A stretch of DNA of 64,000 bases from Escherichia coli (GTDB taxonomy: Bacteria; Pseudomonadota; Gammaproteobacteria; Enterobacterales; Enterobacteriaceae): NCBI RefSeq assembly GCF_050920415.1, contig NZ_CP169309.1, one strand, 5' to 3'. A program made the translations under genes and the position numbers. How positions within the stretch are numbered: position 1 is the stretch's first letter; every line of letters starts with the position of its first letter. Of this stretch, positions 3,009 through 37,368 are shown in pieces. Under the pieces are notes generated by a model. It was not told the origin of the DNA. It was given only the letters and a program-made list of their open reading frames with translations, and ran no database searches.

Positions 3009-3202
3009 GTACGGGCGTCCAGCCAGATGAATAAAACGCGCGCAAATATGCGTCATTTTTTGACGTGCATCAAGTTTTTTCACCAGTTTGAGAAAAAATC
3101 ATCAAACAGCAACTTGCCCTTATCCATCTTCAGAATGAGTATTATTGCGGATTTTCTTAACCCGTACTATACACATAGGGGCAATGATAAAAGGTGGCAA
3201 AA

Positions 3203-3298
3203 ATGAATGTTTCCAGTAGAACTGTAGTACTGATAAATGTCTTTGCTGCTGTTGGTTTGTTTACTCTTATCTCTATGAGATTTGGCTGGTTTATTTGA
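3203..3298 (+). CDS. yncL: Small membrane protein YncL (31 aa)
   Basis: Hand-translated ATG at 3203: MNVSSRTVVLINVFAAVGLFTLISMRFGWFI, stop TGA 3296-3298; below the ORF-track length cutoff; matches remembered YncL. Confidence 0.75.
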   Translation: MNVSSRTVVLINVFAAVGLFTLISMRFGWFI

Positions 3299-3697
3299 TG
3301 TAGTGATTTTGCACGCAGCACGTACTGTCAGAGAAATCACTGCTCTGACAGTACGCAAGATCATCTCATACTCTCCAGGTTTACAACATTATCCTTAATA
3401 TTTACTTCTTTTTGCTGACATCTACATTGAAATAAGTAGAAAACATCCCCCTCCTATCGTCCTTACAGACAGCTTACTGATTCAAAGGGAACTTTGTTTT
3501 CACATTTTTCTATCATCATTACTTTAGACGCGCGGGGTCTATAAATGCTTTGTACTTTCAGGGAATAAAGTAAATATAAAAAGATGGCATAAAGTTTATG
3601 CATGGCAGGATGTTTGCAACCTCCTTGAGGACGCTGTCCCATTGAAATTGCAAACCCCGCACTGGTTATCTGCCCATTTATCATGTAAAACAGACAA

Positions 3698-4507
3698 TTA
3701 TAGGTCTCTGAATATCTCAGAAAGATTGAATTTTTTATAGTCCCTCTCTTGGATATTTCCATTTGATATCAATCGATTCATCTCTTCAACAAAATAATTT
3801 ATATCATCACATTTGTTATTATCCGGAAGATCTGAATAATTATAATTCCACCACTTTATTCTCAACAATTCATCAATAATATTTGAATCAAATCTAAATC
3901 TGATTATTTTTGCAGGAACTCCTGCAACTATGGCATATGGTGGCACATCTTTGGTAACAACGGAATTGGCAGCAATAACAGCACCATCACCTATTGCGAT
4001 GCCACCTTTCAATACAACATCATTTCCTATCCAGACATCGTTTCCTATAATCGGATTTTCAGGTTTGGTAATGAATGGTTTCAATGTCCATGGCCGTTCG
4101 AACTCACTCAAGGCAAATTTATCAAATTCACCGTTATAAGTCATCATGTGAGTAGTAAAACGATTCATAGGATGATTTCCACCCATTATTTTTACATTTG
4201 ATGCAATACTACAAAATCGTCCTATATGTATATTCCCTGAAAAATGACAAGTTGGAAATGAAAATGCACCTACACTGGAAAAATTTTTTACAGGCATTGT
4301 TGAATATTCTTCAGCAATAACATTCTCTTCAATTGATATTTTGTCACCTTTTGAGAAAAGAAATAAATTCCTTTCTTTGTAAGACTTCTTCCCTTTATGA
4401 TTTAAAAATATTTTATTATCCATGCAAAATTCAAAGTGTTTTTTCGTCCACCTAAAGGTAATGGTTTTATTTTTATCTTCCGTGAATTTATATAACTGTA
4501 CGTTCAT
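3698..4507 (-). CDS. Hexapeptide-repeat (left-handed beta-helix) O-acetyltransferase, xenobiotic acetyltransferase (XAT/CatB/Vat)-like, with N- and C-terminal extensions; start codon uncertain
   Basis: ORF 3698..4507 (-), 269 aa; core ...NHPMNRFTTH...GNDVWIGNDVVLKGGIAIGDGAVIAANSVVTKDVPPYAIVAGVPAKIIRFRF is a typical XAT hexapeptide signature; strongly AT-rich unlike flanking genes; not recalled at this site in K-12. Confidence 0.8.
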   Translation of the reverse strand: MNVQLYKFTEDKNKTITFRWTKKHFEFCMDNKIFLNHKGKKSYKERNLFLFSKGDKISIEENVIAEEYSTMPVKNFSSVGAFSFPTCHFSGNIHIGRFCSIASNVKIMGGNHPMNRFTTHMMTYNGEFDKFALSEFERPWTLKPFITKPENPIIGNDVWIGNDVVLKGGIAIGDGAVIAANSVVTKDVPPYAIVAGVPAKIIRFRFDSNIIDELLRIKWWNYNYSDLPDNNKCDDINYFVEEMNRLISNGNIQERDYKKFNLSEIFRDL

Positions 4508-4740
4508 ACTAAAGACATCTACTTTTACTTATAAATTATTAGTTGAATAACGATACTCTAAAGTCTTCTATGAATCAACCATGACAGGATGAAAAATCAC
4601 CATCATACCTTTAGCGCATAATAGTCGTCTAACTTTTCCACTCGTTTTAATGTATTCATTCTTATTAATCGCCAATGACTCAAAACTTCAAACGATAGTG
4701 GCCATCATATAATTTCATATAACAGCCACTAACATTTAAC

Positions 4741-11818: not shown

Positions 11819-12058
<240 letters not shown>

Positions 12059-24267: not shown

Positions 24268-24483
24268 AATGTCTGCCTCCATTGGTCAGTAATCTGGAGT
24301 GTAGGTAACCACATTCACTCTGGCGGGAAGAATTTACAAACTGTGATCTCGCCGCGAAAACATCAATATTATCCATTTTCCTGTAACGCAATTGCTTTAA
24401 TTGTTAATAATATTTTGCAATCAAGTTATCATAATCAAACAACTTCACTTGTCAGCGACACCGCTTCGTTTTTAACATCGCTT

Positions 24484-25407
24484 ATGGAAAAAAATAGTCT
24501 GTTTAGTCAGCGCATCCGTTTGCGCCACCTTCATACATTCGTAGCTGTTGCACAACAAGGAACTTTGGGGCGCGCAGCTGAAACCCTTAATTTGAGTCAA
24601 CCTGCGCTCTCCAAGACATTGAATGAACTAGAGCAATTGACAGGTGCTCGCTTGTTTGAGCGTGGTCGTCAGGGGGCGCAACTTACCTTACCCGGCGAAC
24701 AATTTTTAACACATGCAGTCAGAGTTCTTGACGCTATTAACACTGCCGGACAGTCGCTTCATCGTAAAGAAGGTCTTAACAATGATGTCGTCAGGGTAGG
24801 TGCATTACCTACCGCGGCGCTGGGAATATTACCTTCAGTTATAGGTCAGTTTCATCAGCAACAAAAAGAGACGACCTTGCAAGTTGCGACAATGAGTAAC
24901 CCTATGATTCTGGCAGGTTTGAAGACCGGCGAAATCGATATCGGGATTGGTCGAATGTCAGATCCCGAACTGATGACCGGGCTTAATTATGAATTGCTGT
25001 TTCTTGAATCGCTGAAGTTGGTCGTTCGTCCCAATCACCCACTGCTTCAAGAGAACGTAACGCTAAGTCGGGTGCTGGAATGGCCTGTCGTTGTATCACC
25101 AGAAGGTACTGCACCACGCCAGCATTCAGATGCATTAGTGCAGAGCCAGGGCTGTAAAATTCCTTCGGGCTGTATCGAAACGCTGTCTGCTTCGCTATCT
25201 CGTCAACTTACGGTTGAATACGACTACGTGTGGTTTGTCCCTTCTGGCGCTGTAAAAGACGACCTGCGTCATGCCACGCTGGTGGCCCTGCCTGTTCCGG
25301 GGCATGGTGCAGGCGAACCGATCGGAATATTGACCCGCGTAGATGCGACGTTCTCTTCCGGTTGCCAATTGATGATTAACGCTATTCGAAAATCAATGCC
25401 GTTCTGA
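24484..25407 (+). CDS. ydcI: LysR-type transcriptional regulator YdcI
   Basis: ORF 24343..25407 (+); YdcI from ATG 24484 (MEKNSLFSQRIRLRHLHTFVAVAQQGTLGRAAETLNLSQPALSKTL...), 307 aa. Confidence 0.9.
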   Translation: MEKNSLFSQRIRLRHLHTFVAVAQQGTLGRAAETLNLSQPALSKTLNELEQLTGARLFERGRQGAQLTLPGEQFLTHAVRVLDAINTAGQSLHRKEGLNNDVVRVGALPTAALGILPSVIGQFHQQQKETTLQVATMSNPMILAGLKTGEIDIGIGRMSDPELMTGLNYELLFLESLKLVVRPNHPLLQENVTLSRVLEWPVVVSPEGTAPRQHSDALVQSQGCKIPSGCIETLSASLSRQLTVEYDYVWFVPSGAVKDDLRHATLVALPVPGHGAGEPIGILTRVDATFSSGCQLMINAIRKSMPF

Positions 25408-25412
25408 AAAGT

Positions 25413-25440
25413 AAGGGATCTTTCGATCCCTTCTTTGATA
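25413..25440. terminator. Bidirectional hairpin terminator between convergent ydcI and trg
   Basis: aagggatc-tttc-gatccctt perfect stem-loop with T-rich flanks. Confidence 0.55.
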
Positions 25441-25443
25441 TTT

Positions 25444-27084
25444 TCACGCTGTTGCGAAACTAACAGACTCACCAGCTCCGCGTGATTCTGCCAACACAGA
25501 ATGTTTGTTCAGGCGGAAAACGTCTACCGCCTCAGTTAATCGTGCAGCCTGTTCTTCAAGGGACACCGCCGCCGCTGAGGCCTCTTCTACCAGAGAAGCA
25601 TTCTGTTGCGTCACCTTATCCATTTCGGAAATCGCCTGGCTCACCTGCGTTATGCCTCTACTTTGTTCATCCGAGGCGGCGGCAATCTCCTGCATGATAT
25701 GTGTGACACTCGCGACGGCATCAACAATCGTGCTCATGGTTTTCCCTGCCGTTGCCACTTCAACCGACCCCAGGTCAATTAACCTGACTGATTCACTGAT
25801 CAAGCCTTCAATCTCTTTCGCCGCCTGGGCGCTGCGACTTGCGAGTGTCCGTACTTCGCTGGCGACAACGGCAAATCCACGTCCTTGCTCACCCGCTCGT
25901 GCGGCTTCAACGGCAGCATTCAGCGCCAGAATATTTGTCTGGAAAGCAATGCTGTTGATGACGGCAGTGATCTCGGAAATTTTCTTTGAACTCGTGGAGA
26001 TTGCTCCCATCGTTCTAACTACACCGGAAACCGTCTCCCCGCCATCGCTGGCTTTAATGGAGGCCTCTTGCGCCAGTTTGCTGGCATGATGCGCGTTATC
26101 CGCATTCTGTTTCACCGTCGCAGTGAGTTGCTCCATGCTAGCGGCAGTTTGTTCGATTGCCGCCGCTTGTTCTTCGGTGCGAGATGAAAGGTCCGCATTG
26201 CCAGCGGAAATTTCGCTGGTGCCACGATAAATCTCTTCCGCGCCCTGTCGAACAGTCCCGACTGTCATCCCCAGTGAATGCTGCATTTGCTGTAAATGAT
26301 GACTTAAGCGACCGATTTCATTACGACCCGCCGGTTCATCATTCATCGTCAGATCGCCACTGGCAATTTTTTCAATCCGTTGTGCGGCATGTTGCAGTGG
26401 ACGAATGACGATCCGACGTAGCACCATAAATGTTATCAGCGTCATGACCACGGCAAGCACAAACGCGCCAATCATAAACATCACACCCAGGCGGGTACGC
26501 TGATGGGCCTGTTCCGCCAGTTGGTTGGCTCTGGTGCTACGTATCTTAACGGCTTTGTTCAAAATATCGGTATAAGCATTATCCAGCGGTCGGATCTGCT
26601 CACTTTCATGATTGATAATCGCTTCAAACATGCCATTTTTGGCATATTTCAACATAGGTTGCATACCCGTGATATAAGCCTGGAAACGTTGATTTAATTC
26701 AGCGTCGAGAGCTTCATCAGCAAGTGTTTTCACCGGCCGACTCTGGTAAGCCCGATAACCTTGCTGCGACTGTTTAATCTCCGATTCGGCTTGCGCAATA
26801 TTTCGCTTCATTGCTTCCATTTCCGCAATACGACTCGCCGCCCCGGCCTGAATCATATTGATCCGGGCCGAACGCAAAAAATCTGAGCTGTTCGCTAACC
26901 CGGTCCGAATCTCAATCTCCGCAGTCACATCACGCTGATCGCGATCGGCCTGCCAGAGGAAATAGCCAGCCAGGGCTGAACTCAAGGCAAACAGAAGTAA
27001 GATACCGCCAAGAATGCAGGCAAATAACGGAACCAGCCTGATGTGATGCAAAAAACCTAATCGCTGTGAGGGAGTTGTATTCAT
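25444..27084 (-). CDS. trg: Methyl-accepting chemotaxis protein III (ribose/galactose sensor) Trg
   Basis: ORF 25444..27084 (-), 546 aa; two TM segments, HAMP, conserved MCP signalling region. Confidence 0.95.
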
Positions 27085-27366
27085 TACCGTTGTCTCTCTT
27101 CCAGGTTTACTCCTGATAGAAAGTCATCGGCATTTGACGGTAATTACTTACGACTAAAAACCTCTTTGCGTCACATTTTTACAACAATTATTGCAGAGAA
27201 GATTAATGCCATTGGATTGAAGAAAGTGAGGAATGGTTAAACTGGCTAACCCGAATGACGAAAAATTCTGGAAAACAGCACGCTATTTCGTGAAGTGATT
27301 ATTTTCGTCCCTAAGGAAACCTCATAGGATGCCTGCGGGTGCCTGTACTGCCCCCCTTTTTACGCT

Positions 27367-27540
27367 TCAGTTAGTGCATGTTTTTTTCGATGCACTAATA
27401 GAACCATCATTACAGACAAATTTGCCGCCTGCTGTACAGTGAGAGATCCCCCCTTTCGAACCAGAGCAGGGTTTGCGCCCGGCATCGGCATAAAAGGAAA
27501 CAAGCGCTCCCATAACCAAGATAAGTGCCAATTTTTTCAT
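27367..27540 (-). CDS. ydcA: Small secreted protein YdcA (57 aa)
   Basis: Hand-translated from the minus strand: MKKLALILVMGALVSFYADA...KKTCTN, ATG revcomp at 27538-27540, stop at 27367-27369; below ORF-track cutoff. Confidence 0.8.
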   Translation of the reverse strand: MKKLALILVMGALVSFYADAGRKPCSGSKGGISHCTAGGKFVCNDGSISASKKTCTN

Positions 27541-27710
27541 ATAACCTCCATGGTTTATCGAATCTTATGTTCGATTTGAACGTTATACGCTGGTTTATTT
27601 TGATACCGTTGATGAGATCAAAGAACGGGTGAATTGATTAAAGATAAGCCAGATGGGCATATGGACAAGGATTATGGTTTTATTTGTCATACAAATAAAT
27701 ATAATAGGCG

Positions 27711-27774
27711 CTTCCGATGTAGGCCCGTATTCTTCGCCTGTACCACGGGTCGGTTTTAGTACAGGCGTTTTCTT
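27711..27774 (+). ncRNA. rydC: Hfq-dependent sRNA RydC
   Basis: cttccgatgtaggcccgtattcttcgcctgtaccacgggtcggttttagtacaggcgttttc matches the remembered RydC sequence with terminal hairpin and U-run; in the ydcA-cybB intergenic region convergent with cybB, as in K-12. Confidence 0.75.
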
Positions 27775-27784
27775 TAAATATCCT

Positions 27785-28315
27785 TCAGGAACGTTTACGC
27801 GGCATCATGCGTAGAAGTGTGTTGTCCTTCCAGAAATAGTGGTGTGCCAGTGCAGCCGCAGCGTGCAACCCGATGACAAAATATCCCAGATTCGCCAGCG
27901 TCTCATGCCACCACTTTAAGCTATCAACCCGTTCGAAATTGGCCTCTGCTGCGTAAGGCATTGTCATACCAAACGCAAACCATGGGTTGCCCCGGTTATA
28001 CATCATCACCAAACCAATCACTGGTAGCGCAATAAACAGGAGATAAATCACCAAATGTCCCAAATGTGCCAGTCCCGTCATCATCGGTTTTGGTTTAGGT
28101 ACAATCGGCGGAGTTGGGTATTTAAGCCTTAACAAAAGACGAACAACCATCAGCACGAGAATTGAGATGCCACAGGAAACATGAATCATGTTGATGAGCG
28201 GCCGATCGCTACGTGGGAAGAAACCACGAAACTCCATTGCGCAATACGCTGCGATAACCAGCAAAAAGACCAGCCAGTGAATGCCGATTTGTAACCTTGA
28301 ATATTTACTTTCCAT
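27785..28315 (-). CDS. cybB: Cytochrome b561 CybB
   Basis: ORF 27785..28351 (-); CybB from internal Met MESKYSRLQIGIHWLVFLLVIAAYCAMEF... (176 aa). Confidence 0.92.
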   Translation of the reverse strand: MESKYSRLQIGIHWLVFLLVIAAYCAMEFRGFFPRSDRPLINMIHVSCGISILVLMVVRLLLRLKYPTPPIVPKPKPMMTGLAHLGHLVIYLLFIALPVIGLVMMYNRGNPWFAFGMTMPYAAEANFERVDSLKWWHETLANLGYFVIGLHAAAALAHHYFWKDNTLLRMMPRKRS

Positions 28316-28503
28316 AACATTTCCTGCTTTAACATAATTTTCCGTTAACATAACGAGCTTTTCTTAAAATTTCATTAAATTTTGTTCACCCGTTTTCAGT
28401 ACGTTACGTTTCACGGCAAGAATGTAGATTGCCCATCCCGCCATCCTGGTCTAAGCCTGGAAAGGATCAATTTTCATCCGAACGTTCCTGACAGGAGAAG
28501 ACC

Positions 28504-29505
28504 ATGAGTAAAGTTGGTATTAACGGTTTTGGTCGTATCGGTCGACTGGTGTTGCGTCGATTACTTGAAGTCAAAAGCAACATAGACATTGTCGCTATTA
28601 ATGATCTCACTTCCCCAAAAATTCTCGCCTACCTGCTGAAACATGATTCAAACTACGGACCGTTCCCCTGGAGCGTTGATTTTACGGAAGATTCACTTAT
28701 CGTTGATGGAAAAAGTATCGCGGTTTACGCCGAAAAAGAGGCTAAAAATATTCCATGGAAAGCGAAAGGCGCAGAAATCATTGTCGAATGTACTGGCTTT
28801 TATACCTCCGCCGAGAAATCGCAGGCGCACCTTGATGCTGGTGCGAAGAAGGTGTTGATTTCCGCCCCTGCCGGTGAAATGAAAACCATCGTTTATAACG
28901 TCAATGACGACACACTGGATGGCAACGACACCATTGTTTCCGTGGCGTCATGCACCACTAACTGTCTTGCACCGATGGCCAAAGCCTTGCACGACAGTTT
29001 CGGAATAGAAGTCGGCACGATGACGACCATTCATGCCTATACTGGCACCCAGTCACTGGTGGATGGCCCGCGAGGTAAAGATCTACGCGCTTCACGTGCA
29101 GCGGCAGAAAATATCATTCCCCACACTACAGGCGCGGCAAAAGCCATTGGTCTGGTGATCCCAGAACTGAGCGGCAAACTGAAAGGTCATGCGCAACGCG
29201 TACCCGTGAAAACAGGTTCGGTGACTGAACTGGTGTCTATTCTTGGAAAAAAAGTGACTGCCGAAGAGGTGAACAACGCGCTTAAAAACGCGACAAACAA
29301 TAACGAGTCATTTGGTTATACCGATGAAGAAATAGTCTCTTCTGATATCATTGGCAGCCATTTCGGGTCGGTGTTTGATGCCACGCAAACCGAAATTACC
29401 GCCGTGGGCGATTTACAGCTGGTGAAAACGGTCGCCTGGTATGATAACGAATATGGCTTCGTCACGCAGCTTATTCGCACCCTCGAAAAATTCGCTAAAC
29501 TCTGA
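28504..29505 (+). CDS. gapC: Glyceraldehyde-3-phosphate dehydrogenase C (GapC), apparently intact 333-aa reading frame
   Basis: ORF 28504..29505 (+); NGFGRIGR Rossmann motif, catalytic SCTTNCLAP; uninterrupted. Confidence 0.9.
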
Positions 29506-29511
29506 CGAGCA

Positions 29512-29540
29512 AAGGCGGAGGGAAAAGCCTCCGCCTCTTT
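29512..29540. terminator. Bidirectional hairpin between convergent gapC and aldA
   Basis: ggcggagg-gaaaag-cctccgcc stem-loop. Confidence 0.5.
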
Positions 29541-29546
29541 CACTCA

Positions 29547-30986
29547 TTACGACTGTAAATAAACCACCTGGGTCTGCAGGTATTCATGCAAGCCATGTTT
29601 GCCATCTGCGCCGCCAATACCGGATTTACGCCATCCGGCGTGGAATCCTTGCATAGCTTCGAAGTTTTCACGGTTGATGTAAGTTTCACCAAACTTCAGC
29701 CCTTTAATAGCTTTCATCGCGACGTTCAGATTTTGGGTATAGAGTGATGAGGTCAGGCCGTAATCACTGTCATTAGCCATTGCGATAGCCTCTTCCAGCG
29801 TGTCAAATGCGACCACTGGCAGCACCGGGCCAAAGGTTTCCTCGTGCATAATCGACATTTCCTGACGAACATCCAGCAGCAAAGTCGGCGGATAATAATA
29901 TCCTTTCCCCTCAACCGCTTTGCCCCCCAACGCTACCCTCGCCCCCTCTTCGACTGCGCGCGCCACTTTTTGCTCGACCCTTTCCAGCGCCGCGGCGTTA
30001 ATCAACGGCCCCATCGCAATGTCGTTGCGTTCAGCGGGGTTACCAAATTGAACCGCCTGCATCGCTTCACCCAGCCGATTGACGAAATGATCATAAATGC
30101 CTTTCTGTACATAAACACGTTCTGCACAGTTACACACTTGCCCACTATTAATGACGCGTGAATCAACGATGGCTTTGACTGCCAGTTCAAGATCGGCATC
30201 GTCCATTACGATAGCTGGTGCTTTACCACCCAATTCCAGACACACTTTTGTGATATTTTTTGCTGCAGTCGCCATGATCTTTTCACCTGCAGAGACGCTG
30301 CCTGTCATACTGACCATTGCGACCTTTGGGTTACCCGCCAGTTCTTGCCCAACGGTTTCACCACGCCCCAGCACAAGGTTAAACACACCGCGTGGAAGGC
30401 CTATTTCATCGACAATTTTGGCAAAAGCAATCGCATTGTTTGGCGTAAATTCACTGGGTTTAATGACGATAGTATTACCGGTCAAAAGAGCGGGAGCCAT
30501 TTTGCGGGCAATGAGGAAGAACGGGAAGTTCCACGGCAGAATGCCGGTAGTCACGCCAAGCGCACGTTTAAAGAGAAGAATATTTTCTCCTGGACGATCG
30601 CTTTGAATAATCTCACCTTCGTAACGCCGCGCCCACTCTGCCATGTAATCGATATAATCCGCAGTAAATGCTACCTCAACTTCGGCCAGCTGCTGGAGCT
30701 TGCCCCCTTCTTCAACAATCAGCGCACTGATTTCACTGGCGCGTTCGCGGATCCCGACGGCGATTTTGCGTAACCAACTGGCGCGTTCAATGGCAGGCAA
30801 TGCTTCCCATTCTGGCTGCGCGCGCTCTGCGGCGTCGATTGCTTTGCGAGCATCTTCAGCCTGACCATCGGGAATGCGGGAAATCACCGCCTCTGTTGCG
30901 GGGTTAACCACATCAATCCATGCGTCTCCACGCCAGGTAACAAACTGTCCATCTATATACATAGGATGTTGAACGGGTACTGACAT
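29547..30986 (-). CDS. aldA: Lactaldehyde dehydrogenase AldA
   Basis: ORF 29547..30986 (-), 479 aa; aldehyde dehydrogenase family, MSVPVQHPMYIDGQFVTW... Confidence 0.95.
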   Translation of the reverse strand: MSVPVQHPMYIDGQFVTWRGDAWIDVVNPATEAVISRIPDGQAEDARKAIDAAERAQPEWEALPAIERASWLRKIAVGIRERASEISALIVEEGGKLQQLAEVEVAFTADYIDYMAEWARRYEGEIIQSDRPGENILLFKRALGVTTGILPWNFPFFLIARKMAPALLTGNTIVIKPSEFTPNNAIAFAKIVDEIGLPRGVFNLVLGRGETVGQELAGNPKVAMVSMTGSVSAGEKIMATAAKNITKVCLELGGKAPAIVMDDADLELAVKAIVDSRVINSGQVCNCAERVYVQKGIYDHFVNRLGEAMQAVQFGNPAERNDIAMGPLINAAALERVEQKVARAVEEGARVALGGKAVEGKGYYYPPTLLLDVRQEMSIMHEETFGPVLPVVAFDTLEEAIAMANDSDYGLTSSLYTQNLNVAMKAIKGLKFGETYINRENFEAMQGFHAGWRKSGIGGADGKHGLHEYLQTQVVYLQS

Positions 30987-31982: not shown

Positions 31983-32395
31983 GGTTCCTCCTTATCGTTC
32001 CCTTAAGAATACTGCGTGAGATAATAATGAGAAGCGGAGCACTCTGAAAGGAAGATGATGCTTTTTCTATCGCGCCATCGCGAACCAGACACTGGTTTTA
32101 GTCATACTGTATTTGCGGAGAAACTGTTGATAAAACATCAATAACATAATGTTCTATCATTTTTAAATGACAGATAATCTGGTGTGATATTTATATAATA
32201 TTCATTCTTATATTTCTCAATCAAGGGAACATTTGGTATCCAGTGTATCATCCTCATCAACCAGATGTGTTATAAGCACTTTACCTCGTTAATTTTAATA
32301 TTACGAGTTACAGGACAAAACATCACTCGCATTTAGTCCAGTAACTCGTAGTAGCCAGAGTATACATACCCATTGATAAAATGCCTGGCAATAAA

Positions 32396-33253
32396 TTAAC
32401 CCGCTATACTCGCACTCGTCGGCCCTGTTTCAATACTACCCACAATATCAATAATGTGACCCCAGAACATATCATCATCGTTATAATATAATGAATAATC
32501 TCCATTATAATCCATAGCCAACTCAACAAGATTTATTCTGCTAACAAACATATCTTCTGTAATTTCTTCATCTTCTTCATCTTGAAGCCAGTCATTGGCC
32601 AATTCAGTTAATTGTTCTGCAGCATATTGGCGGAACTCCTGATCTTTTTGTTGCATATGACTACATAAAAATCGCAGATTTTCAAAAGCCTGTTGCCAGG
32701 TATATCTATCATTCTTATCTACTTCCATAGATACAGAAATATTCTGATCATTCCATTTCACTTCCCCGCTAAAACAGGAGTAGTCTTTATTAAGCACGAA
32801 AGTCCCCAATTGCTGATCTTCAACAACAACTGGTTTGCGATATTCTTTCTGAATATTGAGCAGTTCCTCACACTGAACATGACTTTCAAGAACCTCAAGA
32901 ACATAAAACCGATTATAAAACTCGGCTAACTTTCCTTCCGGCACGGTCCTGTCAATCAAATCTCGTACTCTCAGGCGATATATACCACCAGACTGCATAT
33001 TAAACGGCCACGCACAGCCTTGAGTTTTCTCATTTTCTTCTGTTATCAACCAGTTGAGTCGTCCATCTCCAACGTGAATTTCTCCCGTAGTCAGACTCTT
33101 CCAGGCGAGTAAGTGTTCAACCGCTGTCCAGTAATTATCACCGTTACTCTTACCCGCGCCACCGCCAGTATCACTAAGAAGAACGATAATTTCTTCTTCT
33201 GTATCTTTAAATGTATGACTAAATTTTTTGTATTCTTCAGAATTTAAGTCCAT
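32396..33253 (-). CDS. Hypothetical acidic cytoplasmic protein (285 aa), no recognisable family; strain-variable islet gene
   Basis: ORF 32396..33253 (-); AT-rich coding sequence in an AT-rich 1.4-kb segment between ydcF and hrpA; no TM or signal peptide; Asp/Glu-rich C-terminal half; not recalled in K-12 at this site. Confidence 0.75.
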   Translation of the reverse strand: MDLNSEEYKKFSHTFKDTEEEIIVLLSDTGGGAGKSNGDNYWTAVEHLLAWKSLTTGEIHVGDGRLNWLITEENEKTQGCAWPFNMQSGGIYRLRVRDLIDRTVPEGKLAEFYNRFYVLEVLESHVQCEELLNIQKEYRKPVVVEDQQLGTFVLNKDYSCFSGEVKWNDQNISVSMEVDKNDRYTWQQAFENLRFLCSHMQQKDQEFRQYAAEQLTELANDWLQDEEDEEITEDMFVSRINLVELAMDYNGDYSLYYNDDDMFWGHIIDIVGSIETGPTSASIAG

Positions 33254-33402
33254 TTTTGCCCCGGTGAAAAATAAATTTGATCAATAACATTGAGTGCCGC
33301 AGTAAAGAATGTGTTATCGATAATTCAAAAATGACTGCGTACGCCACAAGCCTACTCCCCACGCGACGTAAGGAGTACCGCCCTTGCTATTTTTCAGAAT
33401 TC

Positions 33403-33465: not shown

Positions 33466-36400
33466 TTAACCGCTAATCTGCTCCATCGCCTGCAAAATAC
33501 GCTTATCCGAAATCGGATAAGGCGTACCAAGTTGTTGAGCGAAGTAGCTGACGCGCAGCTCTTCTATCATCCAGCGGATCTCTTTTACGTCTTCATCTTC
33601 ACGACGTGCTGGCGGCAGTTTGTTGATCCACTGCTGCCACGCCTGCTGGACATTTTCGACTTTCAGCATCTGGGCGCGGTCGCGATGTGGATCAACCGCC
33701 AGTTTTTCCAGACGTTTTTCAATCGCCTGTAAATAACGCAGCGTGTCGCCCAGCCGTTTAAAACCGTTGCCAGTGACAAAACCGCGATACACCAGCCCGC
33801 CCATCTGCGCTTTAATGTCAGAAAGCCCCAGCGCCATGGTCATATCCACCCGTCCTTTCAGGCGTTTGTTGATATTGAACACTGCCGTAAGGATTTGCTC
33901 GACCTGCTTCGCAATATCCACCACCGTGTCGTTCAGTTCAGCGCGGACTTTTTCATGAAGCGCGGCAAAGCCTTCTTCCGTCCAGACCGGGCCGCCCGCC
34001 TCATCAATCAACTTATCAACACCGCAGGAGATGCAGTCGTCAATGAGATCCAGCACTTTACCGTACGGGTTAAAGTAGAGACCCAGCTTCGCTTTGTTCG
34101 GCAGTTTCTCATGCAGATATTTAATTGGCGACGGAATGTTCAGCAACAGCAAGCGACGCAAACCACGCCACATAGCCTGCTGTTGTTCCTGCGGGTTATC
34201 AAAAAGCTTAATCGCTACGCTGTCACGCTCATCCACCAGCGCAGGCCAGGCCTTCACTTTGTAGTTGCCACGTTTCTGCTCGTAGTGATCCGGTAAATTA
34301 CCGAAGCTCCAGATATGTAACCCGCTTTGCTCAATACCATCATCGGCAACGGCGGAAAGCGTTTCCTGCACTTTGCCTTTCAGGGCGTCTTTCAGATCCT
34401 GTAATGAGCGCCCTTCTTTTAGCTTCTTATTTTTGTCGTCCACCACGCGGAAGGTGATTTTCAGGTGATCGGGCACCTGATCCCAGTGCCAGTCTTCGCG
34501 GTCAACGGTAACGCCGGTCATCCGCCGTAGCTCGCGCTCAAGGCTGTCGAGCAACGGCAGTTCCAACGGCGTGACGCGACCTAAAAACGCTTCGGCGTAG
34601 TTTGGCGCGGGTACAAAATTACGCCGTACCGGTTTCGGCAACGATTTGATTAGAGCAATCACCAGTTCACGGCGCAGGCCTGGGATCTGCCACTCAAACC
34701 CGCTTTCCTCAACCTGGTTAAGTAACGGCAGCGGAATATGCACGGTCACACCGTCAGCATCCGCCCCCGGCTCAAACTGATAGCTTAAACGCAGCTTGAG
34801 ATTGCCCTGATGCCAGAAGTTCGGGTAATCCAGCTTGCTGATTTTTTCCGCCCCTTCTTTGATCAACATGCTCTTTTCAAAGTTGAGCAAATCAGGTGTT
34901 TCGCGGCTGACTTTTTTCCACCAACTATCAAAGTGTCGTGAGGAGATCACATCGTGGCTGATGCGCTGGTCGTAAAATTCAAACAACGTTTCGTCATCCA
35001 CCAGAATATCGCGGCGACGTGATTTGTGTTCCAGTTCTTCCACTTCTGCCCGTAGTTTCAGGTTTTCACGGAAGAATGCGTGACGCGTCTGCCAGTCACC
35101 TTCCACCAGCGCGTGGCGAATAAAAAGTTCACGACACAGCGCAGGATCAATCTGGCTGTAGTTGACCTTACGCGCAGCAACAATCGGCAACCCGTAAACG
35201 GTGACTTTTTCAGTTGCCATCACCGCGCCCTGCGCCCGTTCCCAGTGCGGTTCGCTGTAGGAGCATTTAATCAAATGCTGGGCAACTGGCTCTACCCATT
35301 CCGGATCGATGCGTGCCGCAATGCGCCCCCACAGGCGGCTGGTTTCTACCAGTTCCGCCACCATTGCCCATTTCGGCGGCTTCTTGAATAAACCAGAACC
35401 GGGGAAGATGGAGAAACGCGCGTTACGTGCGCCGGTATATTCCTGTTTATCGGCATCTTTCATGCCGATATGCGAAAGCAAACCTGTCAGTAAGGCGATG
35501 TGAATTTCGCGATACTCCGCCGGTTCGCTGTTAACCGGAATGCCAAGTTCTTTCACCACCTGGCGCAACTGGGTGTAGATATCCTGCCATTCGCGCACGC
35601 GCAGATAGTTAAGGTAATCGGTACGGCACAGGCGACGGAAGGCGTTTGAAGAGAGCGCCTTTTGCTGCTCGCCGAGATAATTCCACAGATTTACAAACGC
35701 CAGGAAGTCGGATTCTTTATCGTGAAAGCGACGATGTTTTTCGTCCGATGCCTGCTGCTTGTCCATTGGCCGCTCACGCGGGTCCTGAATAGAGAGCGCG
35801 GAAGTGATAATCATCGCCTCACGCACGCAGCCATGTTTCTGCGCTTCCAGCACCATTCGCGCCAGACGAGGATCGACTGGCAGTTGCGAGAGCTGGCGAC
35901 CGAGCGGCGTCAGTTTATAGGCGCTGGCCTGTTCATCAGTGGTGATCGCGCCCAGCTCTTCGAGCAGACGCACGCCATCCTGGATATTGCGTTTATCCGG
36001 CGCTTCTACAAACGGGAACGCAGCGATATCGCCCAGCCCCAGCGCGGTCATCTGCAAAATAACCGAGGCCAGGTTGGTACGCAGAATCTCCGGATCGGTA
36101 AACTCCGGGCGCGAGAGGAAATCGTCTTCGGAATAAAGACGAATGCAGATCCCTTCTGACACACGACCACAGCGGCCTTTACGCTGATTAGCTGAAGCCT
36201 GCGAAATGGGCTCAATCGGCAGACGCTGCACTTTGGTGCGATAGCTGTAGCGGCTGATACGCGCCGTACCTGGGTCGATAACGTATTTAATCCCCGGCAC
36301 AGTCAGCGAGGTTTCCGCGACGTTAGTCGCCAGCACAATGCGCCGTCCGCTGTGCGACTGGAAGACGCGGTTCTGCTCGCTGTTCGAAAGCCGTGCATAA

Positions 36401-37368
36401 AGCGGAAGAATTTCCGTATGGCGTAAGTTCAGCTTGTTCAGCGCATCGGCGGTATCGCGAATTTCTCGCTCGCCGCTCATAAAAATCAGAATGTCGCCAG
36501 GGCTTTCCTGGCTCAGTTCATCTACGGCATCGAAAATCGCCTGCAACTGGTCGCGCTCGGTGTCATCAGCTTCTTCAACAATCGGGCGATAACGCACCTC
36601 CACCGGATAGGTACGACCGGAGACTTCGATAATCGGCGCATTATTAAAGTGGCGCGAAAAGCGTTCCGGGTCGATAGTCGCGGAAGTGATAATGATTTTT
36701 AGGTCAGGACGCCGCGGCAGTAACTCTTTCAAATAACCGAGGAGAAAATCGATATTCAGGCTACGTTCGTGCGCTTCGTCAATAATGATAGTGTCGTACT
36801 GCATCAGCAGGCGGTCTTGCTGGATCTCTGCCAGCAGGATACCGTCGGTCATCAGCTTGACCATCGTGTTATCACTGACGTGATCGCTGAAACGCACTTT
36901 ATACCCGATGCAACCGCCCGGCTCCGTTTGCAGCTCTTCCGCAATACGGTTCGCCACCGTTCGTGCCGCCAGACGACGCGGCTGGGTATGGCCGATCAGC
37001 CCTTTAATCCCGCGGCCCAGTTCCATACAGATTTTCGGTAACTGAGTCGTTTTACCGGAACCCGTTTCCCCGGCGACGATCACCACCTGGTGATCACGGA
37101 TTGCTTCGAGAATGTCCTGCTTTTTCTGACTAACCGGCAAATTGTCCGGATAAGTGATTTCCGGTCGTGCTGCTTCACGCAGCAGGACTTTCCCTGCCGC
37201 CTGGTCAATCTCTTTCGCCATCTCCTGGAAAATGGCCTGTTGTGCATCAGGATTTTTAACCTTCTTCACGCCGTGCAGACGGCGGGAAAAACGCAGTCTG
37301 TCACGCAGCATCAGCGAATCCAACCGTTGCTGCAAGGCCGTAAAGGTCAATTTTTGTTGTTCTGTCAT
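33466..37368 (-). CDS. hrpA: ATP-dependent DEAH-box RNA helicase HrpA
   Basis: ORF 33466..37368 (-), 1300 aa; Walker A GETGSGKTTQLP, DEAH box IIDEAHERS. Confidence 0.95.
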   Translation of the reverse strand: MTEQQKLTFTALQQRLDSLMLRDRLRFSRRLHGVKKVKNPDAQQAIFQEMAKEIDQAAGKVLLREAARPEITYPDNLPVSQKKQDILEAIRDHQVVIVAGETGSGKTTQLPKICMELGRGIKGLIGHTQPRRLAARTVANRIAEELQTEPGGCIGYKVRFSDHVSDNTMVKLMTDGILLAEIQQDRLLMQYDTIIIDEAHERSLNIDFLLGYLKELLPRRPDLKIIITSATIDPERFSRHFNNAPIIEVSGRTYPVEVRYRPIVEEADDTERDQLQAIFDAVDELSQESPGDILIFMSGEREIRDTADALNKLNLRHTEILPLYARLSNSEQNRVFQSHSGRRIVLATNVAETSLTVPGIKYVIDPGTARISRYSYRTKVQRLPIEPISQASANQRKGRCGRVSEGICIRLYSEDDFLSRPEFTDPEILRTNLASVILQMTALGLGDIAAFPFVEAPDKRNIQDGVRLLEELGAITTDEQASAYKLTPLGRQLSQLPVDPRLARMVLEAQKHGCVREAMIITSALSIQDPRERPMDKQQASDEKHRRFHDKESDFLAFVNLWNYLGEQQKALSSNAFRRLCRTDYLNYLRVREWQDIYTQLRQVVKELGIPVNSEPAEYREIHIALLTGLLSHIGMKDADKQEYTGARNARFSIFPGSGLFKKPPKWAMVAELVETSRLWGRIAARIDPEWVEPVAQHLIKCSYSEPHWERAQGAVMATEKVTVYGLPIVAARKVNYSQIDPALCRELFIRHALVEGDWQTRHAFFRENLKLRAEVEELEHKSRRRDILVDDETLFEFYDQRISHDVISSRHFDSWWKKVSRETPDLLNFEKSMLIKEGAEKISKLDYPNFWHQGNLKLRLSYQFEPGADADGVTVHIPLPLLNQVEESGFEWQIPGLRRELVIALIKSLPKPVRRNFVPAPNYAEAFLGRVTPLELPLLDSLERELRRMTGVTVDREDWHWDQVPDHLKITFRVVDDKNKKLKEGRSLQDLKDALKGKVQETLSAVADDGIEQSGLHIWSFGNLPDHYEQKRGNYKVKAWPALVDERDSVAIKLFDNPQEQQQAMWRGLRRLLLLNIPSPIKYLHEKLPNKAKLGLYFNPYGKVLDLIDDCISCGVDKLIDEAGGPVWTEEGFAALHEKVRAELNDTVVDIAKQVEQILTAVFNINKRLKGRVDMTMALGLSDIKAQMGGLVYRGFVTGNGFKRLGDTLRYLQAIEKRLEKLAVDPHRDRAQMLKVENVQQAWQQWINKLPPARREDEDVKEIRWMIEELRVSYFAQQLGTPYPISDKRILQAMEQISG

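Follow-up and report, generated by a model that had tools for sequence, protein, structure and literature searches.

The interval between trg and ydcA in this Escherichia coli chromosome is almost certainly what remains after the secondary deletion of a chromosomal hokB/sokB type I toxin-antitoxin cassette. Our study covered a 64-kb stretch of DNA (the window), which runs in reverse orientation relative to K-12. By a number of different approaches, we demonstrate the deletion and where it begins and ends, and we show that it is derived, rare and confined to a single lineage; the locus is best described as a hokB/sokB deletion allele that carries a probable scar of the insertion sequence IS150.

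The alignment with K-12 MG1655 locates the event to the base. In that strain the trg-ydcA interval measures 619 bp and is annotated with yncP, hokB, mokB and sokB. All four lie entirely within one clean gap of the pairwise alignment, 337 bp long and equivalent to NC_000913 1,491,872-1,492,208, and the sequences that flank this gap are collinear with K-12 and about 96% identical. The absence is a derived deletion of these 337 bp, which left a promoter stub and took yncP along with hokB, mokB and sokB. An earlier note, made from the letters of the window, had claimed that the hokB/mokB/sokB locus is missing between trg and ydcA and that the interval amounts to only 282 bp. The first claim is borne out by the K-12 alignment, which the note had proposed as a check and which places the gap between 27345 and 27346, and also by protein searches and an RNA family search; the second, including the two flanking genes as the note had placed them, is confirmed by the open reading frames and the sequence (Table 1). 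The promoter listed for trg is a putative one of the sigma-28 type, read against the consensus. Further genes of the window include cybB, aldA and an intact gapC. The latter (28504-29505) is a 333-aa open reading frame, annotated as a type I GAPDH in a near-identical genome, whereas the K-12 copy is a pseudogene.

Table 1. Coordinates of the features in and around the trg-ydcA interval of the window.
Feature	Position	Strand	Evidence and remarks
trg (methyl-accepting chemotaxis protein), intact, 546 aa	25444-27084	-	ORF; annotated trg in near-identical MFDS1022581
trg-ydcA intergenic interval	27085-27366	.	282 bp vs 619 bp in K-12 MG1655; ORF list, sequence, K-12 annotation, alignment
Putative sigma-28 (FliA) promoter of trg, TAAGTAAT-N11-GCCGATGA	27124-27150	-	Read from sequence; K-12 conserved; left untouched by the deletion
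Retained hokB promoter-proximal segment, with inferred -10 TAGGAT at 27325-27330	27279-27336 (about 60 bp)	+	K-12 conservation up to the junction; hokC alignment; E69 repeat
hokB mRNA leader, first 9 nt (GGGTGCCTG), 5' partner of hok mRNA 5'/3' end pairing	27337-27345	+	Rfam leader model; hokB/hokC conservation
Putative IS150 scar, TGTACTGC = nt 1-8 of the IS150 left inverted repeat	27344-27351	+	IS150 site of 17 genomes; edit-distance test
Deletion junction	27345-27346	.	337 bp of K-12 missing; alignments
hokB 3' flank remnant (CCCCCTTTTTACGCT), counterpart of K-12 CCCCTTTTACACT, which follows directly on the 3' pairing element	27352-27366	+	Alignment
ydcA, intact (57-aa secreted small protein)	27367-27540	-	ORF; annotation
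RydC sRNA gene, retained	27711-27774	+	Rfam RF00505, 90.5 bits

The HokB tblastn that the earlier note had also proposed, run over the whole 64-kb window, returned no match better than E = 2.7 and no Hok peptide. A blastn with the K-12 cassette had a sole match in the window, a 21-nt promoter/leader stub (27325-27345) that precedes the junction. Four open reading frames of at least 20 aa lie in or overlap the interval, and we rejected them as diverged toxins since none has a Pfam match or Hok-like features; K-12 HokB, as a positive control, matched PF01848 at 1e-23. The Rfam sok model (RF01794), which scores 109.7 bits on the K-12 control, found nothing at E <= 10 in window positions 26500-28500, where a permissive scan gave RydC only, and nothing at gathering score across the whole window. 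No mok reading frame overlapping hok is left, the mokB-homologous region being wholly inside the 337-bp gap. The tac/fbi pairing of the mRNA ends is likewise absent, with the 5' element reduced to GGGTGCCTG and its 3' partner to GCCCCCC. A mini-hairpin at the junction has a folding energy of -5.1 kcal/mol (z = 0), no better than shuffled sequence. A scan for terminators flagged GGGTGCCTGTACTGCCC with a T-run at the junction; its folding energy equals that of the shuffles and we make no claim of a terminator. Apart from the retained segment homologous to the hok promoter, the locus shows none of the features that define hok/sok. The earlier note's statement that no Hok-like open reading frame and no mok- or sok-like sequence can be found there stands according to tblastn, Pfam, Rfam and the alignment, but the interval is not entirely free of hok-derived sequence, as it keeps the promoter region, the first nine nucleotides of the leader and, on the 3' side, a few flanking bases.

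These remnants lie on both sides of the junction. To the left, the window matches K-12 up to ...CATAGGATGCCTGCGGGTGCCTG, and this stub aligns with the promoter and leader of the paralogue hokC: the -10 element TAGGAT stands opposite the hokC TATAAT and is followed by the conserved leader start GGGTGC(C/T)TGAG. A simple scan for the sigma-70 consensus made no call on the retained segment (27279-27336), though it is homologous to the hokC promoter. In K-12, the match to the Rfam sok/hok-leader model begins at the base that is homologous to position 27337. To the right of the junction, the window sequence CCCCCTTTTTACGCTTCAG aligns with K-12 CCCCTTTTACACTTCAG, which lies immediately past the 3' pairing element. 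The GGCCCCCC variant of the 3' flank is shared by strain 100117, a hokB+ member of the window's lineage.

The retained stub bears directly on whether anything was lost at all. It could be argued that the site is an ancestral empty one, that is, that this lineage never acquired hokB and that the cassette was inserted in other E. coli. The indel does span almost exactly the hok transcription unit, resembling a cassette boundary, and the lineage of the window is deep-branching. Nevertheless, the window keeps the promoter segment and the first nine nucleotides of the hok mRNA, which are homologous to hokC and are part of a duplicated unit in E. coli strain E69 (CP089930.1, L008, about 3180-4050), where the whole hokB cassette, from promoter to 3' end, occurs twice in tandem between trg and ydcA. 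The E69 repeat unit includes the ~60-bp promoter segment kept in the window, and this segment therefore belongs to the cassette. Furthermore, hokB lies between trg and ydcA in at least two divergent Escherichia genomes, one of them E69 (flanks 80-92% identical to the window), in the closest relatives at the locus (R32_14_1F, RMDEC465 and EC42405, with flanks 98-99% identical) and in all of the other 14 of the 18 genomes of the window's lineage. A YdcA-based outgroup search gave, among the matches listed, two Escherichia loci, the others being distant YdcA homologues from Pseudomonas and other genera that are uninformative here. Because the promoter and nine nucleotides of leader are kept, and because relatives and outgroups are hokB+ at the exact site, we conclude that a secondary deletion took place; the empty ancestral site is very improbable, and we reject it on the retained stub and the outgroups.

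The deletion allele is rare. The 337-bp hokB cassette was matched in 5409 of 5426 complete E. coli genomes (99.7%), and only four of the 5426 carry the deletion, all in one deep-branching lineage (n = 18). When complete E. coli genomes were searched with a 48-nt probe spanning the junction, the exact sequence was found in two, MFDS1022581, which is near-identical to the window, and N96; the same deletion, with CT replacing TG at 27344-27345, is present in 2013C-4282 and WL297. That the structure is an artefact of assembly or sequencing, or that hokB has moved elsewhere in the genome, is scarcely credible. Nothing specific speaks for either, our coverage of the genome being the 64-kb window and the chromosomes of the four genomes, and an artefact is contradicted by the same structure in four complete genomes sequenced independently (Korea, Tibet, USA and China). 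Relocation is contradicted by a chimeric query made of hrpA and the cassette, which identified exactly those four chromosomes as being without the cassette anywhere (one match place, against 2-3 in the 14 hokB+ relatives), and by the lack of any Hok signal in the 64-kb window. As separate observations on this interval, about 880 of the 5426 genomes have no match to the 5' half of trg plus the intergenic region, and in Eco-15 trg is a truncated pseudogene adjoining an intact hokB.

The lineage itself is defined by its divergence. Overall identity between the window and K-12 is 93.6-96.8%, and for a 3-kb hrpA segment (34000-37000), only 18 of 5426 genomes reach an identity of 95% or more, the others standing at about 93.5%. 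These values place the strain in a deep-branching lineage that bears the label E. coli and may correspond to cryptic clade I. From ydcI to aldA (24400-30900), deletion included, N96 and the window are 99.9-100% identical, but in hrpA, about 7 kb away, the two differ by 1.5%. The region is therefore mosaic through recombination, and the comparison indicates a breakpoint that lies somewhere from about 31 to 34 kb.

On its left side, the deletion breaks at precisely the base where IS150 inserts recurrently. The first 39 nt of the junction probe match 17 other genomes, each with a complete IS150 at exactly GGGTGCC^TGAGAC and a duplicated GCC target; the left end of the element (TGTACTGCACCC..., TGTACTGCACCCATTTT...) faces trg, which is the orientation that the route proposed below requires. 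K-12 HMS174 is an example of a strain with IS150 at this point (GGGTGCC^TG). The window reads GGGTGCC-TGTACTGC-CCCCCTTTTT, and the eight nucleotides past the insertion point are identical to nt 1-8 of IS150, its left terminus. In addition, TGCACCCATTTT at the left end of IS150 forms a direct repeat with the 3' flank of hokB, which reads GGCACCCCTTTT or, in strain 100117, GGCCCCCCTTTT. The window contains no copy of IS150, as judged from its 25-nt left inverted repeat, which is unmatched at up to three mismatches. The 3-bp target duplication is absent as well: HMS174 shows GCC...GCC and the window a single GCC, which would be expected had the right end of the element been deleted. A second recurrent IS150 site was observed in the hokB leader/sokB region (TTCTATCAAC^, AAC duplication) in MB64, 100117 and E200086, with the element in the same orientation as at GCC^TG and the hokB open reading frame still annotated as intact. 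Two of these three strains, 100117 and E200086, are members of the window's lineage with IS150 in the hokB leader at this second site (ATCAAC^). Recurrent IS150 insertions at trg/mokB have been reported in laboratory evolution (PMC5419217). A literature search for hokB in combination with IS150 yielded no paper, and it was a broader search that led to this report; in a 2026 preprint that surveys Hok, neither trg nor ydcA nor IS150 is mentioned.

Based on these coincidences, a two-step route can be proposed. IS150 would first insert at the start of the hokB transcript, in its recurrent target GGGTGCC^TGAGAC and with its left end towards trg. Recombination or replication slippage would then occur between TGTACTGCACCCATTTT, at the left end of IS150, and a similar repeat in direct orientation at the 3' end of hokB (CATGGC[A/C]CCCCTTTT), with TGCACCC/GGCACCCC as the pair of microhomologous repeats. 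This second step would remove about 1.8 kb, namely the entire cassette and nearly all of IS150, of which just the terminal 8 nt, TGTACTGC, would stay behind. The unmutated product predicted from this route is TGTACTGCACCCCTTTTAC / GGGTGCCTGTACTGCACCCCTTTTAC, and the junction sequences to be sought alongside it would be GGGTGCCTGTACTGCCCCCC and GGGTGCCCTTACTGCCCCCC; in metagenomes, no sequence matched the pattern GGGTGCCNNTACTGCNCCCCTTTT, which would capture the junction both as observed and in its predicted pristine form. If IS150 was involved, the hokB+ alleles of the lineage would not be expected to read GCCTGTACT in the leader already. No intermediate with IS150 at the exact GCC^TG site was seen within the window's lineage.

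The route was evaluated by an edit-distance test in which all two-breakpoint deletion products were compared with the observed junction. The best products of a hokB+ allele with IS150 at the site come within 2-3 edits, against 4-5 for those without IS150. When the IS150 end was swapped for 300 random 40-nt ends, the products were always more than two edits away, the best value being three (2 of 300). The IS150 signature comes down to only four non-templated bases (TACT); the TG is common to the hokB leader and the GC to the hokB 3' flank. Two edits, an extra T and an A-to-G change, are unexplained under the IS150 model, as is the CT variant in two of the four genomes. From all of this, we infer that IS150 probably took part in the deletion, and we consider the explanation as a whole, a secondary loss of the cassette that includes the IS150 step, to be probable to the same degree.

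A plain 337-bp deletion within the hokB cassette, independent of any insertion sequence, is the chief competing explanation, although we rather doubt it. Such a deletion would have joined GGGTGCCTGAGACT to GCCCCCCTTTT and been followed by small changes at the junction, and the resemblance to IS150 would be a coincidence. Its deleted length is exactly that of the 337-bp gap and its best product is only four edits away, two more than with the IS150 model. Moreover, the junction has clearly mutated since the event, as TG and CT variants exist, and the hokB leader TGAGACT resembles TGTACT, such that GGGTGCCTGAGACT followed by GCCCCCC, with an AG-to-T change, yields the same sequence. However, this reading needs an extra substitution and a 1-nt deletion exactly at the junction, the breakpoints share no microhomology, and the CT variant is further still from the product. 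Nor does it account for the left breakpoint lying at the IS150 insertion site of 17 genomes, or for eight consecutive bases being those of the IS150 terminus.

The likeness to known systems is limited to what the deletion spared. With the K-12 hokB/mokB/sokB locus (b4428/b1420/b4429) and yncP, the window shares the site, the promoter region, nine nucleotides of leader and the distal 3' flank. Unlike that locus, it has no toxin open reading frame, mok frame, sok antisense gene or yncP and has lost most of the 5'/3' pairing elements; without the toxin frame, mok, sok and the pairing elements, it cannot work as a toxin-antitoxin system. The hokB alleles disrupted by IS150 have a complete 1443-bp IS150, a 3-bp target duplication and an intact hokB open reading frame, whereas the window has none of these, and under the IS150 route it would be the end state after both IS150 and hokB were deleted. 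The other chromosomal hok loci of K-12 (hokA, hokC and hokE) are reported to be flanked or inactivated by insertion sequences (Pedersen and Gerdes 1999). IS186 adjoins hokC in K-12. What the window has in common with hokA, hokC and hokE is the decay of hok/sok in association with insertion sequences, with the difference that there hok persists beside the element and here the whole cassette is gone. The kind of event is thus already known, the specific allele is rare and found in one lineage only, and the finding does not imply a novel system type or mechanism.

HokB is a pore-forming peptide linked to Obg/ppGpp-induced persistence (PMC6094483, PMC5349102). Judging from its sequence, the strain would make no HokB and would be without the HokB-dependent (Obg/ppGpp-induced) membrane-pore route to persistence, and the orphan hokB promoter would face the 3' end of ydcA. 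One could go further and suppose that the allele reflects selection and not neutral decay, the HokB persistence toxin having been disarmed through the targeting of hok leaders by IS150 that laboratory evolution shows, that the allele then spread by homologous recombination in the deep-branching lineage, and that the orphan promoter now transcribes antisense into ydcA. We regard this scenario as unlikely; the spread by recombination is suggested because MFDS1022581 and N96 are identical at the locus and yet 1.5% apart in hrpA. With hokB near-core in E. coli (present in 99.7% of the complete genomes), isolates that naturally lack it are uncommon, and studies of HokB-dependent persistence could use them as natural controls. 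IS150 insertions in a type I toxin-antitoxin leader are common among isolates and in laboratory evolution, and the junction would be a small natural example of one that ended in complete loss of the cassette. Beyond the description of the strain, the finding matters little.

Several other differences from K-12 were observed in the window. A second toxin-antitoxin locus is degraded at 11819-12057, where the window lacks ~444 bp that comprise hicA and the start of hicB, with the break near 12057, and the hicB remnant is a 67-aa open reading frame matching the HicB C-terminus (11819-12022). Two inserts of 1.3 kb were found. The first, between patD and yncL (3405-4739), contains an open reading frame on the minus strand (3698-4507) for a 269-aa hexapeptide-repeat acetyltransferase-like protein; the second lies between ydcF and hrpA (32056-33391), where the annotation of the near-identical genome has a gene fragment and a DUF2262 protein. 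The K-12 copy of IS609 (1,503,161-1,504,908) is absent, its flanks joining cleanly between 16393 and 16394. The ydbA region (48104-49458) is highly diverged, and the remainder of the window (49459-64000) has no counterpart in K-12 1.450-1.471 Mb, the paa/tynA region being missing. The MicC sRNA lies at 61565-61685, and the window therefore jumps to the ompN-ydbK neighbourhood.
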